A stretch of 10,198 bases of DNA from a virus. Its lineage: Duplodnaviria; Heunggongvirae; Uroviricota; Caudoviricetes. This document shows positions 2,864 through 10,198 of the stretch, in pieces. How positions within the stretch are numbered: position 1 is the stretch's first letter; each line of letters starts with the position of its first letter. A program made the position numbers and the translations under genes. The notes under the pieces were generated by a model. The model was not told where the DNA came from. It was given only the letters and a program-made list of their open reading frames with translations, and ran no database searches. Where the stretch lies: the IMG/VR virus record IMGVR_UViG_2531839473_000010, positions 1 through 10,198 of that record; one strand, 5' to 3'.

Positions 2864-3027
2864 TGGTTGCCTCCTTTGCGCCACATCGCATTCAGATATT
2901 TGTTTTGATTCACTGATGGAAAAGAATTTCTCTTAAGCAATTCCTCTCTCGATGGCATTGGCTTTACGCGTTGGCTAATAATCATTTCTGCCGGAAGAAT
3001 GCCGGGATTGTATGCAAGTCCTCTCAT
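2860..3027 (-). CDS. Hypothetical small protein (55 aa from the ATG at 3027; the tool ORF extends to 3060)
   Basis: The ATG at 3025-3027 has GAGGAA about 8 nt upstream and lies just after the stop of the 98-aa ORF (3038-3040). The longer tool start at 3060 has no ribosome-binding site and overlaps the upstream gene. Confidence 0.4.
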
Positions 3028-3037
3028 GGTAAATTCC

Positions 3038-3334
3038 TCAGTCATTACTGATAGCGCCATAGCGTGAGCGGTAATTACGCAGGCGCGGGTCGATATATTC
3101 AGGGAAGTTGGTATATGTGGCTTTGCGGAATGGTCGGATTGATGTTTCGTTTATTCGGTCTTTTTCCTGTTTTTCTGCGAGTTGTATATCGCGTCGGTAC
3201 TTCCGTTCTGCTTTTGTTTCTGGTGGCAGAGCAAGAAACGCGTCGAGATTATTCTTGATATTTTCCAGCACCTCCGATACGGAATTGCCGGAACAGCGGC
3301 GCGGGTCATCCGCACCATACAAAGGCGCTGGCAT
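3038..3334 (-). CDS. Hypothetical protein (98 aa)
   Basis: ATG with GGAG at 7-nt spacing, starting 17 nt after the exonuclease stop. Basic and charged; no family recognised. Confidence 0.5.
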
Positions 3335-3350: not shown

Positions 3351-3899
3351 TTATTTAGCTAACTTTTTCCAGATCGCTGAAACGTATTTGGCTTGGTGGA
3401 TGGCATCATCAAGCGCGTTGTGGCGAGTTCCTTTGAATGGCATATCTCGCTTAGGGTCGAATCCTATTACCTTTCCAAGCTCGACGATTGTTCTTACGTC
3501 GCGGTCATTCCACCACTGCCACGGAACTGGCTGCCCTGTCAGCGAATAACTGTTTCGGAGAATAACGCAGTCAAATGATGCTCCATTCCCCCAAACCTGA
3601 ACGAATTTGTGGTTAGCGTTCTTTATGATGAATTCAGATAACCATGAAAGAGCCGTTGAAAGCTCCTGAGTGTTGCTGGTTAGCGATTTTCTGGCTTCTT
3701 CACTCTGTTCCATCCACCATAAAATCGTTGAAGCGTCAGGACGCGCTCGATATCGCATTGATGACTCAAGCGAGATATTTACCGAGAACTCTTCTCCTGT
3801 TTCTCCGGTATTCGGGTCAAAGAATACCGCCCCAATAGAAATAACTGGCGCGTATGGCTCGTTGACCATTGTTTCAAGGTCAACCATCAAGTGATTCAT
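3351..3899 (-). CDS. DEDDh-type 3'-5' exonuclease (182 aa)
   Basis: Motifs consistent with the DnaQ-like fold: VDLETM (motif I, D-x-E), WGNGASFD (motif II), HNALDDA (motif III, H and D). AAGGA ribosome-binding site. Part of the recombination gene cluster. Confidence 0.75.
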   Translation of the reverse strand: MNHLMVDLETMVNEPYAPVISIGAVFFDPNTGETGEEFSVNISLESSMRYRARPDASTILWWMEQSEEARKSLTSNTQELSTALSWLSEFIIKNANHKFVQVWGNGASFDCVILRNSYSLTGQPVPWQWWNDRDVRTIVELGKVIGFDPKRDMPFKGTRHNALDDAIHQAKYVSAIWKKLAK

Positions 3900-4396: not shown

Positions 4397-4870
4397 CTAG
4401 AACGGAATATCCGAATCGTCGAAGTTCATAGGTGGTTCGCTGTGATTTCCCTGCTGCAGAGGTTGCTGTCTTTGTTGCTGACCGTTATTTCGCTGAGGTG
4501 AAGACTGTTCATTGCCTCCTTGCTTGCCACCAAGCATTTGCATGGTTCCACCAACGCCTACGATAACTTCGGTAGTGAACCTATCCTGTCCGCTTTGATC
4601 CTGCCATTTTCTTGTCCGTAATTTGCCTTCAAGATAAACCTCTGAGCCTTTTCGCAGATATTCGCTGGCAATTTCTGCCAGTTTCCCGCTCATTACCACT
4701 CGGTGCCACTCCGTCTGCTCCTTTTGCTCTCCAGTTTGCTTATCACGCCATTGTTCTGACGTAGCAACTGTAAGGTTTGCAAATGCCGTTCCTGATGGTG
4801 AATATCTGATTTCTGGATCATGCCCAAGGCGACCAATAATGATCACCTTATTTACGCCTCTGCTTGCCAT
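4397..4870 (-). CDS. ssb: Single-stranded DNA-binding protein (157 aa)
   Basis: OB-fold N-terminal region ([43 protein letters not shown]...TEWHRVV), Gly/Gln-rich linker and the acidic C-terminal tip DDSDIPF characteristic of bacterial and phage SSB. Confidence 0.9.
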
Positions 4871-7498: not shown

Positions 7499-8038
7499 AT
7501 GAGTAACTGGTGGCAGGAACTATTACGTTTCTTCCTGCGTGGTCTTACGCTACAACAGTTAATTCATATGCTTATTATTTTAATTGCCTTGATAATAATC
7601 ACCCCTGCATCAATTAAAGAGTGGGTAGATATAAGGAACCCAGAAATACTTCCAGATCACTGGATGTATTACGCAATGCTTTTGTGTATCAGTTATGTTC
7701 TGAACAGGGTGATGGAGTTTATATTTCTGGCATCTTCAGACAGATATAAAAAATATCTCAGTAAGAGAGATGAGGCTAAAGTAATTGTGGAGACTGAGCG
7801 CCTGTTCAATTCTCTGAGTATTCAGGAAAAAGAGGTTTTAGCATTTGCTGTTATGGCAAATAACAAAATCGTACTTAAGCACGGCGATCCGGTCGCTTTA
7901 TCTCTTATGAGAAAAGGCCTTCTCCATCGCTCAGGTGTGACTTACAGCGCGTCAGGTAAAGAGAAATTTGTTATACCTGACGTCTGGTTCCATGAGTGTT
8001 ATATGCGCTTTGCTGGTAAAGCTGATGAGCTAATTTAG
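7499..8038 (+). CDS. sieB: SieB-like superinfection-exclusion membrane protein (179 aa)
   Basis: The only plus-strand gene inside the leftward operon, convergent with and immediately adjacent to the N-like gene, as I recall for lambda sieB. Two hydrophobic helices (LIHMLIILIALIIITPASI and YYAMLLCISYVLNRVMEFIFLA). Assignment rests on synteny and topology, not on recognised sequence identity. Confidence 0.5.
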   Translation: MSNWWQELLRFFLRGLTLQQLIHMLIILIALIIITPASIKEWVDIRNPEILPDHWMYYAMLLCISYVLNRVMEFIFLASSDRYKKYLSKRDEAKVIVETERLFNSLSIQEKEVLAFAVMANNKIVLKHGDPVALSLMRKGLLHRSGVTYSASGKEKFVIPDVWFHECYMRFAGKADELI

Positions 8039-8059
8039 TTCCTCGACGGCGGGGGATCG

Positions 8060-8332
8060 TCACCTCGCTGTCAGTTGTTTTGATTTCCGGTAGCCTGCCG
8101 CGTAAAGAGCTACGTTCGGAAGACAAGTTGAGCCTTCATATTTTCTGGTCAACGTTGTCAGTGTTATTACTTCTGCTCTCATTGCTGGTTTGCGCTTGCA
8201 TTGCAAGACCACTCGTGAAGGGGTTGGCCTGTGTAGCTTGTCGGAGCTGATCGCCTCCTGACTTTGCAGATTTGCACGACGAGCTCTACGGCGAGAAGCT
8301 GCGGTGCCTTTAAATTCTGTTTTTCTGGACAT
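8060..8332 (-). CDS. N: N-like transcription antiterminator (90 aa from the ATG at 8332; the tool ORF is 114 aa)
   Basis: N-terminal arginine-rich motif GTAASRRRARRANLQ. C-terminus ...LPNVALYAAGYRKSKQLTAR resembles the P22/phi21-type N proteins as recalled. GGAGG ribosome-binding site at 5-nt spacing. First gene downstream of the predicted PL and nutL. Confidence 0.7.
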   Translation of the reverse strand: MSRKTEFKGTAASRRRARRANLQSQEAISSDKLHRPTPSRVVLQCKRKPAMRAEVITLTTLTRKYEGSTCLPNVALYAAGYRKSKQLTAR

Positions 8333-8430
8333 GGATTCCTCCCGAATAAACTTTGGCGATGCAATCTCGAAGCCCCTCCTGAGAGGGTTGCTTCGGCATT
8401 GCATCCCACAGCTTATGTGGTTGGGTGATC

Positions 8431-8478
8431 TGGCTTTTCAGCCACGTAGTCGAGTGTTCGACGTTGTTTAAAGAGCAT
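8431..8478 (-). promoter_or_regulatory. Candidate nutL site: boxA, spacer hairpin, boxB
   Basis: Minus strand reads TGCTCTTTAAACAAC (boxA-like; compare rrn boxA TGCTCTTTAACAA), then hairpin GTCGA-ACAC-TCGAC, TACG, then TGGCT-GAAA-AGCCA (boxB-like stem-loop with a GAAA loop). Same architecture as the candidate nutR. Confidence 0.6.
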
Positions 8479-8522
8479 GCCAGTCTGTTCCGTTTGGCTT
8501 CCAGCTTCCTGCTGATGGCTAA

Positions 8523-8598
8523 ATAGTACGATGTGTACTTTACTGAGTCAATACAAAATGTTCTAAATATGGTTTAGTTTTTTATAACGCTTTGTATT
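8523..8598 (-). promoter_or_regulatory. Candidate PL promoter with three OL operator sites
   Basis: Minus strand -35 TTGACT (plus 8546-8551), 17-bp spacer, -10 TACTAT (plus 8523-8528). Fifteen-bp sites on the plus strand: AGTACGATGTGTACT (8525-8539, perfect 5-N5-5 palindrome), AATACAAAATGTTCT (8550-8564) and ATAACGCTTTGTATT (8584-8598). All share AC-N5-GT spacing with the OR sites. Confidence 0.45.
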
Positions 8599-8616
8599 TT
8601 ATTGATTTATATTTTG

Positions 8617-8645
8617 GAAAAAGAAAACCCGACGCTAAGGTCGGG
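8617..8645 (-). terminator. Intrinsic terminator downstream of the repressor gene
   Basis: Minus strand reads CCCGAC-CTTAGC-GTCGGG followed by TTTTCTTTTTCC, beginning about 30 nt after the cI stop. Confidence 0.55.
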
Positions 8646-8677
8646 TTATTGTTGTGTGTTTTAGAGTGGTGAGGCTG

Positions 8678-9337
8678 TTAACTAAATGTCTCTTCAGGCC
8701 ACTGGCTGGCGATAACTTTCCCTACTACGGAACAGCTATCATTGCATGGAATCATTGGATATTGCGGGTTTAGTGGTTGTAGGAACACCTGACCGCTATC
8801 CCTGATCAGTTTCTTGAAGGTAAACTCGTCACCACCAAGTCTGGCTATGCAGAAATCACCTGGCTCAACAGCCTGCTCAGGGTCAACGAGAATTAACATC
8901 CCGTCAGGAAAGCTTGGCTTGGATCCTGTTGGCGCGGTCATGGAATTACCTTCAACTTCAAGCCAAAACGCACAATCACTGGCTTTTTTGGTTGTGCTGA
9001 CCCATCTCTCCGCATCACCTTTGGTAAAGGTTCTAAGCTCAGGCGAGAACATCCCAGCCTGAACATGAGAAAAAACAGGGTACTCATATTGTTTTTTAAC
9101 GGGGGCAGATGAGTATTCGCCAACAGGTGAAAATGTACCGTCGTGGTTGAATGAGACGTTATCAATACCAAGGTATTTAAACACCACACCAATCTCGTCA
9201 AGAGATGGATGACGATATCCGCGCAACCAGTGACCAATTCCACCCTGCGTCATACCAAGCTCTTCAGCTAACTTCTCTTGAGTTATGCCGAGCTCTTTCA
9301 TTCTGGATCTAGCCAGTTCATACCATTTCATTTTCAT
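8678..9337 (-). CDS. cI: cI-type prophage repressor (about 219 aa from the ATG at 9337): HTH_XRE N-terminal domain plus LexA/S24-like autocleavage C-terminal domain
   Basis: The C-terminal segment from [38 protein letters not shown] through [88 protein letters not shown] matches recalled lambda cI almost exactly, including the Ser/Lys dyad. The N-terminal DNA-binding domain ([44 protein letters not shown]...) is not lambda's. The tool start at 9499 would extend into the operator region; the ATGs at 9337 and 9331 are more plausible. Confidence 0.85.
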
Positions 9338-9346
9338 ACCCTTATT

Positions 9347-9421
9347 ATTACGCTCTGTACTAAAATCATCCATGCACAAGATGTATTTTTGTTTGCATTC
9401 TAAAAGTACATATCGTATTAT
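9347..9421. promoter_or_regulatory. Candidate OR operator cluster with PR promoter (PRM not resolved)
   Basis: Sites ATTACGCTCTGTACT (9347-9361), TGCACAAGATGTATT (9373-9387, weaker) and AGTACATATCGTATT (9405-9419). Plus-strand PR: -35 TTGCAT (9393-9398), 17-bp spacer, -10 TATTAT (9416-9421), about 20-nt leader to the cro-like ATG. The last site overlaps the -10, as expected for an OR1-type site. Confidence 0.45.
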
Positions 9422-9447
9422 TGCGTTATGATTACTATGGAGGGCAT

Positions 9448-9663
9448 ATGAGCAACCTACGAAAATATCGAGAGTCACTGAATATCTCTCAAACAACACT
9501 TGCTAAGGCAGTTGGATGCACACAGGGAGCTATCGGACATTGGGAATCTGGTCGTCGCTTCCCAGACCTTAAAACATGCCGTGCTCTTGTTGAGTGCCTA
9601 AACAAGTTAGGCGCAAAAGTCAGTCTTGATGACGTGTTCCCGCCGGAACACAAAGCTGCTTAA
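9448..9663 (+). CDS. cro: Cro-like HTH_XRE regulator (71 aa from the ATG at 9448)
   Basis: Divergent from the repressor across the operator region. GGAGG ribosome-binding site 4 nt upstream. Its helix-turn-helix ([22 protein letters not shown]) closely parallels the repressor's ([22 protein letters not shown]), consistent with shared operators. Confidence 0.7.
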
Positions 9664-9673
9664 TAAGCGGATC

Positions 9674-9719
9674 CGCTCTTTGTAACAACGGACATTCGTC
9701 CTACGTCGCTGAAAAGCGA
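9674..9719 (+). promoter_or_regulatory. Candidate nutR site: boxA, spacer hairpin, boxB
   Basis: CGCTCTTTGTAACAAC (boxA-like), hairpin GGAC-ATTC-GTCC, TACG, then TCGCT-GAAA-AGCGA (boxB-like). Begins 11 nt after the cro stop. A perfect palindrome AGCGGATCCGCT (9666-9677) overlaps the 5' edge of boxA. Confidence 0.6.
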
Positions 9720-9763
9720 GTCCCAATATATCTGACCAACTAAGGCCATATGCGTTTCCACGC

Positions 9764-10198
9764 TGAACCGCCCCGGGTTTCCTGGAGAGTGTTTTATCTG
9801 TGAACTCAGGCTGCCAGATCATTGTTTCCGATGGAAGCATAATAAGCTTTTTCTGCTTCTGCCGGAGGAGTATGGCCCAGCCTTCCCAGCAATCGTCGAT
9901 TGTTATACCAGTCCACCCACGTGAGTGTGGCCAGTTCCACTTCTGCACGGTTTTTCCAGCTCTTACGGTGTATTACCTCCGCTTTGTAAAGACCATTGAT
10001 GCTCTCAGCCATCGCGTTGTCATACGAGTCGCCTGTACTCCCTGTTGATGCCAGCAGTTTTGCTTCTTTTAGTCGCTCCGTATAGGCCAGTGACACATAC
10101 TGAGAGCCTTTATCGCTGTGATGGATGGTGCCAGACGGACGACGGGCCCAGAACGCCTGCTCCAGCGCATCCAGCACGAATGTCGTTTCCATAGACGA
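9764..10198 (-). mobile_element. IS3-family insertion sequence, partial (one end only; continues past the window edge)
   Basis: Terminus TGAACCGCCCCGGGTTTCCTGGAGA starts at 9764 with the TG typical of IS3-family ends, and resembles the recalled IS629/IS3411-type inverted repeat. It contains the 3' part of a transposase gene on the minus strand. Confidence 0.75.
9806..10198 (-). CDS. IS3-family transposase OrfB (integrase-core/DDE domain), C-terminal part; 5' end lies outside the window
   Basis: IHHSDKGSQYVS..., DSYDNAMAESINGLYKAEVIH... and WVDWYNNRRLLGRLGHTPPAEAE are the hallmark of the IS3-family OrfB catalytic core C-terminus. The reading frame runs to the window edge. Confidence 0.85.
   Translation of the reverse strand, partial: SSMETTFVLDALEQAFWARRPSGTIHHSDKGSQYVSLAYTERLKEAKLLASTGSTGDSYDNAMAESINGLYKAEVIHRKSWKNRAEVELATLTWVDWYNNRRLLGRLGHTPPAEAEKAYYASIGNNDLAA

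Follow-up and report, generated by a model that had tools for sequence, protein, structure and literature searches.

A conserved spacer hairpin in the nut sites of a probable VT2-Sakai-type lambdoid prophage

The two nut sites identified in the window (the whole analysed stretch of 10,198 nucleotides from a virus of the class Caudoviricetes, IMG/VR record IMGVR_UViG_2531839473_000010) each contain an extra hairpin between boxA and boxB, and this hairpin is a real, conserved RNA structure that is kept by compensatory evolution. The element that follows the arginine-rich motif (ARM) of the N protein is the boxB loop, whereas the spacer hairpin is independent of the ARM class. Taken jointly with the mechanism outlined below, the identification of these elements as nutL and nutR of a VT2-Sakai-type (Shiga-toxin-phage-like) lambdoid prophage, in which the spacer hairpin is a structural insert, appears probable.

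Identity and genomic context of the nut sites

On direct reading, nutL spans 47 nt of the minus strand (8477 to 8431) and has the composition TGCTCTTTAAACAAC/GTCGA-ACAC-TCGAC/TACG/TGGCT-GAAA-AGCCA; this sequence and its four-part layout are those reported in the first-pass annotation, but the start given there, 8478, included one base too many. The nutR string, CGCTCTTTGTAACAAC/GGAC-ATTC-GTCC/TACG/TCGCT-GAAA-AGCGA, is located on the plus strand at 9674–9719, exactly as described previously. The composite motif GCTCTTT-N2-6-ACAAC-N11-16-TACG has two matches in the window, only at nutL and nutR, with a mean chance expectation of 0.00 (0 of 200 shuffles contained any match). A permissive Rfam scan of positions 7900–10198 returned two chance-level matches (E about 9) and no nut-site family, and the nut site is unmarked in all three annotated records inspected.

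A PL-like promoter was detected by consensus scan at 8523–8551 on the minus strand (-35 TTGACT, 17-nt spacer, -10 TACTAT). The predicted transcript start is A8516, from ATCAGCAGGA, which is conserved in all related loci and corresponds to the lambda PL start; boxA is accordingly found at +40, in keeping with the earlier placement of nutL about 40 nt downstream of the PL start. From 5′ to 3′ on the minus strand, nutL consists of boxA with the conserved ACAAC (UGCUCUUUAAACAAC, 8463–8477), an rrn-like extended boxA recognised by direct reading and motif scan; the spacer hairpin GUCGA-ACAC-UCGAC (8449–8462), with a 5-bp stem and a 4-nt loop supported by the minimum free energy (MFE) fold and by covariation; the UACG linker from the spacer hairpin to boxB (8445–8448), which is conserved in scaffold-type nutL sites; and boxB, UGGCU-GAAA-AGCCA (8431–8444), which folds into a 5-bp stem capped by a GNRA tetraloop and is the putative binding site of the N ARM.

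The start codon of the N antiterminator gene (8060–8332, minus strand; stop codon at 8060–8062) follows the nutL boxB by 98 nt and is preceded by the ribosome-binding site GGGAGG, so that an N protein with an arginine-rich motif is encoded downstream of nutL. The 90-aa product (MSRKTEFKGTAASRRRARRANLQ...), in which the ARM is GTAASRRRARRANLQSQ, matches the Pfam family PF25694 (N_peptide, E = 3.4e-32) and is 100% identical to N of VT2-Sakai and of many Stx phages, and 41% identical to N of H-19B. Scanning the genome contigs with the N alignment yielded only 15 loci, mostly C-terminal matches.

Between nutL and nutR lies the immunity region, with the gene for the cI repressor (8678–9337, minus strand; HTH_3 and Peptidase_S24 domains). 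A PR-like promoter (9392–9421, plus strand; TTTGCA, 18-nt spacer, TATTAT; consensus scan) precedes the gene for a cro-like repressor (9448–9663, plus strand; 71 aa, HTH_3), and nutR begins 10 nt past the cro stop codon (9661–9663), that is, just after cro as originally noted. On the plus strand, nutR comprises boxA with ACAAC (CGCUCUUUGUAACAAC, 9674–9689; direct reading and motif scan), the spacer hairpin GGAC-AUUC-GUCC with a 4-bp stem (9690–9701), the UACG linker (9702–9705; direct reading) and boxB, UCGCU-GAAA-AGCGA (9706–9719). The boxA form YGCTCTT(T)A is represented by TGCTCTTTA in nutL and CGCTCTTTG in nutR, and both boxB elements combine a short stem with a purine-rich loop that is identical in nutL and nutR while the stems covary. 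Position, composite motif and the adjacent N gene thus agree with the initial assignment of a matched nutL–nutR pair of a lambdoid N antitermination system.

Folding and conservation of the spacer hairpin

The RNA folding suggested in the first-pass annotation yields two hairpins in nutL and a nearly isoenergetic alternative in nutR. For the nutL 48-mer, the two-hairpin fold has an energy of -12.2 kcal/mol (z = -3.1), which 0 of 200 shuffles attain, and the pair probabilities of the spacer hairpin in this MFE fold are 0.87–1.0. The pair probability of the nutR spacer hairpin is 0.99, and the two-hairpin fold of nutR (-11.1) is nearly equal in energy to a structure (-11.5) that pairs boxA with the 3′ side of boxB. 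This boxA:boxB pairing was rejected as a conserved switch, given that the nutL variants (UGCU, CGCU and AGCU against AGCCA) lose it on inspection by eye. Similarly discarded were the interpretation of UACG as a UNCG-type tetraloop bridging both stems (most sites have C and U/A as closing bases) and RNase III processing of the hairpins (the stems are only 4–6 bp long).

A dyad separates boxA from boxB in both nutL (8449–8462) and nutR (9690–9701). Covariation in related phages, the second check proposed at the outset, proved to be present and strong, with four of the five spacer-helix pairs compensatory and both stems conserved. Across 44 distinct sites, drawn from about 230 related phage loci, 90.2% of the pair cells are paired; the corresponding figures are 65% for shuffles, of which 0 of 500 come up to the real sites, and 29–42% when the partners are slid. 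The four pairs of the spacer helix change on both sides (GC/AU/UA; AU/UA/CG/GC/GU; CG/GC/UA/GU), five G-U cells occur in this helix (e.g., GGCGA/TTGCC and GGGC/GTCC), and both helices are recovered unaided by RNAalifold. When sites are selected solely by the ACAAY..TACG frame and boxB, the insert contains 3–6 nested pairs (92 unique sites), compared with 0–1 in chance matches. As a background control, the viral contigs of the whole collection were scanned for the scaffold without further requirements; of 109 chance matches, 2 reached four or more nested pairs and none was accompanied by a boxB, and no new boxB class emerged. Natural covariation therefore indicates that pairing matters and sequence does not. 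The nutR stem GGAC/GTCC, however, is almost invariant, and most of the covariation comes from the nutL classes and from the contrast between nutL and nutR, so the nutR stem may have a sequence-specific role.

The TACG linker is present in 215 of 215 scaffold-type nutL sites in a search that did not presuppose it. A boxB-anchored look brought out the variant CACG in three nutR sites, and the apparent invariance of TACG is thus partly a matter of ascertainment. ACAAY and YACG are nearly invariant, and the stem sequence free, across five boxB/ARM classes drawn from Escherichia, Enterobacter and relatives of Cronobacter- and Pantoea-type N proteins. The nutL and nutR architectures are concordant in 169 loci, in which the two sites lie 1.2–3.5 kb apart.

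Comparison with known antitermination systems

The nut sites of H-19B (an Stx1 phage; also 933W/HK97-type N) show the same four-part layout, in nutL as well as in nutR. H-19B nutR (locus L004) reads CGCTATTTTCACAAT/GGAC-ATTC-GTCC/TACG/TCGCT-GACAA-AGCGA, with the hairpin at 1149–1160 of that locus; the window agrees with it exactly in the hairpin, the TACG linker, the boxB stem (TCGCT/AGCGA) and the sequence further downstream, and the N proteins (41% identity, as noted above) are homologous members of one Pfam family. H-19B nutL reads ACAAC/GATTC-GAATAT-GAATC/TACG/GCGCT-GACAA-AGCGC. The differences lie in the boxB loop (a GACAA pentaloop in H-19B against a true GAAA tetraloop in the window), the ARM (GNSRSRRRERLKAKALANGV against GTAASRRRARRANLQ) and the nutL stem (GATTC/GAATC against GTCGA/TCGAC). 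The window sites, with GAAA and GTAASRRRARRANLQ, accordingly fall outside the H-19B class, which combines the GACAA loop with an H-19B-type ARM, and the Sakai type is a sister class of H-19B on one scaffold. Moreover, a boxA cannot be recognised in H-19B nutL (GGCGGTGAATAT), whereas boxA in the window is of the consensus, rrn-like form at both sites; dependence on NusB/NusE may therefore differ from H-19B, and the putative reduced host-factor requirement of the latter (NusB/S10 independence, with boxA dispensable) may not carry over.

For the H-19B spacer dyad, Neely and Friedman are said to have put forward, in 2000, a distance-reducing ('reducer') model; reportedly, changes in one arm inactivated the site, compensatory changes restored it, and deletion of the dyad was tolerated with little effect. 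The title of Neely and Friedman (Mol Microbiol 2000;38:1074, PMID 11123680) refers to a reduced host-factor requirement of H-19B N. The H-19B site also served as the model in PMC3526286, where nutR is described as containing 'two hairpins', and N together with NusA/NusG protects its spacer and boxB from RNases H and T1 (PMC3526286). Given this publication and the identity of the nutR hairpins, the spacer hairpin is not new; it is the stem-loop previously documented in the spacer of the H-19B nut sites. Other literature explaining the hairpin was not found; PMC4499122 and PMC11893012 contributed no information about it.

Lambda nutL and nutR likewise follow PL and cro, respectively, and have the same boxA, a 5-bp boxB stem and a purine-rich, GNRA-type loop, and the core of the lambda N ARM is related to that of the N protein considered here (RRRxRRAxxQ in both). 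Lambda differs in its short, unstructured spacer of 8–9 nt (cacauucca and aaaauuaa; PMC2724277, Table 1) and in its pentaloop boxB. The spacer hairpin was found in none of the 18 lambda-type N loci of the locus set, which bears out the original remark that it lies outside the canonical lambda nut site. P22-type sites share boxA (GCTCTTTAAC) with the scaffold family and the GACAA boxB with its H-19B branch, and their N proteins fall into the Pfam family of the N considered here, but the spacer hairpin is absent (GGCTCTTTAACTTCGATGGCGCGCTGACAAAGCGCG in the loci L088 and L192). The Escherichia coli rrn boxA and spacer is ugcucuuuaacaauuua (PMC2724277, Table 1); boxA and the bases that follow it (UGCUCUUUAACAAUUUA) closely resemble nutL UGCUCUUUAAACAAC, so that ACAAY looks like an rrn-type extension of boxA. 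Antitermination in the rrn operons, unlike that at the phage sites, requires neither N nor a boxB after boxA, and there is no spacer hairpin at that position.

Proposed role of the spacer hairpin and alternative explanations

The most likely explanation, which we hold to be substantially more probable than any other, is that the spacer hairpin is a structural insert. Under this scenario, each nut site would fold into two adjacent hairpins in the PL and PR transcripts. The 3′ hairpin, boxB with its GAAA tetraloop, would serve as the specificity element bound by the ARM of the N protein encoded downstream of nutL, and N would then join the host Nus factors on RNA polymerase and enable terminator read-through, by analogy with the lambda paradigm. 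The 5′ hairpin would be a sequence-independent insert without a part in recognition by the N ARM: pairing of 12–16 spacer nucleotides would pull the single-stranded flanks (the rrn-like boxA-ACAAY and YACG) close to boxB, such that the N–Nus complex could assemble as on a short, lambda-type spacer. What we infer here is the binding of N, the participation of Nus factors and the function in shortening the distance.

It is conceivable, albeit not likely, that the scaffold (boxA-ACAAY, hairpin and YACG) serves actively as a docking platform and not as a passive reducer of distance. The hairpin might then present its flanks to a host factor, with the S1-KH domains of NusA or NusB-NusE as the most plausible partners, or, alternatively, to the post-ARM region of the N subfamily, which could change the Nus-factor requirements; these two versions share the same low probability. 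The near invariance of ACAAY and YACG over five boxB/ARM classes, with the stem free, is far above what a passive spacer needs and hints at an active binding platform beyond mere distance reduction. The constant concordance of the nutL and nutR architectures, the binding of NusA to the lambda nut spacer (PMC2724277), the protection of the H-19B spacer by N with NusA/NusG (PMC3526286) and the reduced host-factor requirement named in the title of PMID 11123680 point in the same direction. Furthermore, the scaffold is found, with essentially no exceptions, only with N proteins that share the post-ARM motif HRPTxxRVxLQCK or ELSRAExxCK, so the scaffold may possibly be matched to a region of N outside the ARM; this co-occurrence, however, is also explicable by joint inheritance of N and its neighbour nutL. 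The little effect that deletion of the H-19B dyad reportedly has argues against an essential platform. With the same reservation, one could tentatively regard the scaffold as a portable host-factor docking module onto which boxB/ARM cassettes (GNRA, GACAA and CGAGAAC) have been repeatedly swapped; if so, the Sakai GNRA boxB, which lacks an extruded loop base, would represent a mode of N–boxB–NusA interaction unlike those of lambda and P22.

An effect of the hairpin on termination or pausing, for example by masking a part of the rut site at nutR/tR1 or by causing a pause for N loading, seems quite unlikely. Rho footprints on the nutR spacer of H-19B, where nutR overlaps the tR1 rut site (PMC3526286), are compatible with such a role, but nutL, according to the same source, has no overlapping Rho-dependent terminator and the hairpin is equally conserved there. 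In addition, no conserved U-rich or pause-like sequence is present at the proper distance, and boxB follows only 4 nt later.

Even less credible is the suggestion, made in the first-pass annotation, that the hairpin and TACG form a second recognition element for this N protein in particular, read by its distinctive ARM. Both features adjoin boxB in the two nut sites and are missing from lambda-type and P22-type sites, which function with other N ARMs. Nevertheless, the element that tracks the ARM is the boxB loop: GAAA occurs with the Sakai-type ARM in 161 of 161 cases, GACAA with the H-19B type in 154 of 154, and CGAGAAC with a third type in 20 of 20. The identical nutR hairpin GGACATTCGTCC with TACG, by contrast, serves four ARM classes (152 loci in total: 78 of the Sakai class, 69 of the H-19B class and 5 from two further classes), and GGACATGAAGTCC is common to phages with the GAAA boxB and phages with an unrelated ARM and a boxB with a 7-nt loop (CGAGAAC). 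Conversely, the hairpins of nutL and nutR in one and the same phage are unrelated in sequence (GTCGA.. and GGAC..); the nutL stems covary freely (GTCGA/TCGAC, GATTC/GAATC, GGTGA/TCACC, GGCGA/TTGCC and GAGC/GCTC, with loops of 3–6 nt); and the loops vary (CTC, ACAC, ACTC, ATC and GCAC) among phages with an identical N ARM and whole N proteins that are 98–100% identical. These observations do not support the notion of an N-specific hairpin.

Finally, the dyad is scarcely to be taken for a palindromic protein-binding site on the DNA, or for a terminator of the antisense strand, instead of a nut RNA element. A consensus scan did mark the complement of the nutL hairpin on the plus strand, together with the GTTGTTTAAA that follows it, as terminator-like, but the G-U pairs of the sense strand become C-A mismatches on the other strand and break the palindromy of the DNA, the stems are only 4–6 bp long, and the half-site sequences are not conserved.

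Implications for N antitermination

The current understanding of N antitermination is not overturned by these findings. Rather, the old model is sharpened, with a spacer hairpin that is kept by compensatory evolution independently of N specificity, with the ACAAY and YACG flanks as concrete candidates for host-factor contacts, and with boxB loops and ARMs that are exchanged together, cleanly and as modules, while the scaffold stays constant. The importance of the result is modest; given that the early genes of Stx-converting phages are under the control of N antitermination, the correct anatomy of the nut sites is useful for annotation and engineering.

Nut sites of the window and their genomic context

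The gene set flanking the nut sites is that of a lambdoid immunity region: N (8332-8063, minus strand; 90 aa; Pfam N_peptide, E = 3e-32), a LexA-like cI (9337-8681, minus strand), the HTH gene cro (9448-9660, plus strand) and sieB (7499-8035), with a PL-like promoter (TTGACT-17-TACTAT, 8551-8523) and a PR-like promoter (9392-9421) predicted by consensus scan. On the minus strand, nutL reads TGCTCTTTAAACAAC / GTCGA-ACAC-TCGAC / TACG / TGGCT-GAAA-AGCCA, as in the first-pass annotation, but starts at 8477, one base short of the 8478 assigned there, and ends at 8431; nutR, CGCTCTTTGTAACAAC / GGAC-ATTC-GTCC / TACG / TCGCT-GAAA-AGCGA, is present at 9674-9719 on the plus strand as originally described. 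Their placement relative to PL and cro is also borne out: the nutL boxA lies at +40, taking the conserved start ATCAGCAGGA, and nutR begins 10 nt past cro, with 98 nt separating the end of the nutL boxB from the N start codon. The composite pattern GCTCTTT-N2-6-ACAAC-N11-16-TACG matches the window only at these two sites, and matches none of 200 shuffled windows. Nut sites are annotated in none of the three annotated records inspected.

The N protein is 100% identical to those of VT2-Sakai, the Morioka Stx1/Stx2 phages, phage 1717 and PA phages, and 41% identical to those of H-19B, 933W and HK97. In public annotations of VT2-Sakai and the Stx1 phage, N is given as a 114-aa ORF, from a start codon 72 nt further upstream (MQCRSNPL...; 8060-8404, minus strand, in the window; 2929-3273 and 3429-3773 in the loci L002 and L003, respectively). 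This extended form seems to be an artefact of annotation: evidence for the 90-aa protein from 8332 (MSRKTEF) comes from the Pfam match, from homologue N-termini and from a ribosome-binding site, GGGAGG. A hairpin between the cI end and the PL region (8626-8647; AACCCGACGCTAAGGTCGGGTT) resembles a strong bidirectional terminator, with T runs flanking it on each strand. An IS3-family element (9764-10198; end, TGAACCGCCCCGGG) encoding a transposase fragment with rve domains begins 44 nt past the nutR boxB; O157 genomes contain nearly identical copies, which their annotations assign to the IS1203 family. E. coli MMC-J-0105, the closest genome (99.1%), follows the window only as far as 9763, the point from which VT2-Sakai runs on into cII; thus, the PR operon is cut after nutR and before cII, which probably leaves the prophage defective.

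The fold predicted for nutL RNA consists of precisely the two hairpins proposed (-12.2 kcal/mol, z = -3.1). The nutR spacer hairpin has a pair probability of 0.99 and is present in two nearly isoenergetic folds, the two-hairpin structure (-11.1) and an alternative that is 0.4 kcal/mol more stable (-11.5), in which boxA (CGCU..CUUU) pairs with the loop and 3′ arm of boxB; this pairing is not consistently preserved among nutL variants. With boxA omitted, the two-hairpin structure is the minimum at both sites, and boxA is expected to be out of pairing while NusB/NusE hold it. Within the nutR hairpin is ACAUUC (9692-9697), the hexamer of the lambda nutR spacer cACAUUCca in which AUU is needed for NusA binding; its presence may be coincidental or may go back to a lambda-like spacer, and it is not retained in other nutR loops (AUGAC, AUGAA, AUAA). 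The antisense copy of the nutL hairpin (8449-8462, plus strand), followed by GTTGTTTAAA, is flagged as terminator-like by the consensus scan, probably meaninglessly, given that the stem is only 5 bp long and the G-U pairs of relatives favour the sense strand.

Conservation, covariation and extent of the architecture

The search for sites covered 272 loci with an N homologue and was made twice, first on structure alone and then on the ACAAY...TACG frame alone, in which pairing of the insert was not required. In the latter, all 92 unique sites with a boxB downstream have 3-6 nested end pairs in the insert, against 0-1 in 23 evident chance matches. An independent scan of a viral collection for boxA...ACAAC...TACG alone gave 126 matches, 17 of them with a paired insert and boxB, all nut sites of classes already seen; among the 109 chance matches, at least 4 nested pairs occur in 2 and a paired insert plus boxB in none. 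In an alignment of 44 distinct site cores, 90.2% of cells are paired; column shuffles give 65%, with none of 500 attaining the observed figure, and sliding the partners gives 29-42%; the covariation score is 0.57 versus 0.14, and both sides change in four of the five pairs of the spacer helix. Unguided RNAalifold predicts both helices. The nut regions of relatives thus clearly display the compensatory conservation that the first-pass annotation proposed to look for, the hairpins are real, and the G-U pairs in the alignment assign the structure to the transcribed RNA strand.

Wherever nutR was located, a nutL of this scaffold type (boxA-ACAAY, spacer hairpin and YACG, 5′ of boxB) is partnered by a nutR of the same type across 1.2-3.5 kb of variable-length sequence, in 169 loci and in further ones where CCAAC or CACG variants had kept a site from being detected; the linker is YACG, not strictly TACG. 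The single-stranded frame, that is, an rrn-like boxA ending in ACAAY (resembling rrn UGCUCUUUAACAAUUUA) plus YACG, is constant over all ARM/boxB classes. Common to all scaffold loci is a post-ARM motif of N, HRPTxxRVxLQCK or ELSRAExxCK, an association that may stem from shared ancestry or from functional matching. The spacer hairpin is absent from all 18 loci with lambda-type N, all 3 with P22-type N and assorted other N loci; lambda itself and the hairpin-less loci have a short boxA-boxB spacer.

In a set of environmental phages with lambda-type N (L212, L216, L217, L222-L229), a conserved hairpin, GGGAA-ACGGAACUG-AUUCCC or GGGAC...GUCCC, lies 5′ of boxA, not in the boxA-boxB spacer, and several carry a second boxB-like hairpin, GCGUGAAAAAGCGC, further downstream in the N leader. 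Locus L204 looks like a prophage in decay: its nutL region (around 4815-4850) lacks boxA, ACAAC and TACG, GGTGGCCGGTGCTTCACC directly abuts TGGCTGAAAAGCCA, and N has an in-frame stop around 5000 (MTRRT*FNG).

The boxB loop, not the spacer hairpin, follows the ARM

Tabulated per locus, the boxB loop is coupled to the ARM without exception: GAAA in 161/161 sites with the Sakai ARM (GTAASRRRARRANLQ), GACAA in 154/154 with the H-19B ARM (GNSRSRRRERLKAKALANGV) and the 7-nt CGAGAAC in 20/20 with a third ARM (AKSRRNARRAEEAIKA), other RRRxRRAxLQS ARMs being accompanied by GAAA or GCAA. The spacer hairpin is independent of ARM class. Loci with the nutR hairpin GGACATTCGTCC have the Sakai ARM in 78 cases, the H-19B ARM in 69 and one of two other ARM classes in 5, and GGACATGAAGTCC is used by GAAA and CGAGAAC systems alike; L086 combines an H-19B-like nutL stem with a GAAA boxB, and L180 a Sakai-like nutL stem with another ARM. 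Conversely, the hairpin loops differ (CTC, ACAC, ACTC, ATC, GCAC) across phages with an identical N ARM (whole N 98-100% identical), and the nutL and nutR stems are unrelated within one phage. The earlier suggestion that the hairpin is a recognition element for this particular ARM is therefore abandoned.

The 7-nt-loop class (L203-L210, L254-L257; L252, L261, L264; ARM AKSRRNARRAEEAIKA or ARTRRHRRRMVEAIE) has the same boxA-ACAAC/hairpin/TACG scaffold, with nutL about 4.85 kb into each of L203-L210 and L254-L257. Its boxB stems covary (nutL, GGTGC-CGAGAAC-GCACC; nutR, GCCAC-CGAGAAC-GTGGC), and 3-4 extra bases separate TACG from boxB.

Relationship to known nut sites and possible role of the hairpin

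The spacer hairpin itself is already known from H-19B. The nutR of this phage (AF034975.3) reads CGCTATTTTCACAAT / GGAC-ATTC-GTCC / TACG / TCGCT-GACAA-AGCGA, with the same downstream sequence as in the window, so that the two nutR sites share an identical spacer hairpin, linker and boxB stem and differ only in the boxB loop, that of the window being one base shorter; H-19B nutL reads ACAAC / GATTC-GAATAT-GAATC / TACG / GCGCT-GACAA-AGCGC. In the window, the boxB loop (8436-8439, 9711-9714) is GAAA, a genuine GNRA tetraloop (relatives can have GCAA; L180 has GAAA in nutL and GCAA in nutR), and differs from the pentaloops of lambda (GAAAA/GAAGA) and of P22 and H-19B (GACAA). Because the GNRA loop has no extruded base, the N-boxB-NusA contacts may differ from those of lambda.

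Dyad symmetries in the spacer are said to be unique to the H-19B nut sites; altering one arm reportedly inactivates the site, compensatory changes restore activity and deletion of the dyad has little effect, and the stem-loop is said to have been proposed as a 'reducer' that brings flanking sites together. The best-supported account of the hairpin is that of a sequence-independent structural insert, which would cut the effective boxA-boxB distance and set the conserved flanks beside boxB, where the ARM of N would bind the tetraloop and an N-NusA-(NusB/E) complex could assemble. In the main competing account, which the near-invariance of ACAAY and YACG suggests, the scaffold would serve as an active platform on which NusA, NusB-E or the post-ARM region of N docks. 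In the model H-19B nutR, which contains two hairpins, the spacer and boxB are protected by N plus NusA/NusG, and Rho footprints map to the spacer (PMC3526286); a role of the hairpin in Rho loading or pausing is nevertheless less likely, because nutL keeps the hairpin where no terminator overlaps. Action at the DNA level is contradicted by the G-U pairs.

In the literature searched, no description was found of the Sakai-type class, in which boxB has a GNRA tetraloop and boxA is consensus at both sites; with the hairpin published for H-19B, the sites of the window represent a further case of a known element. The only aspect that a specialist might wish to test is the modularity, with a scaffold of invariant flanks on which boxB/ARM cassettes can be exchanged.
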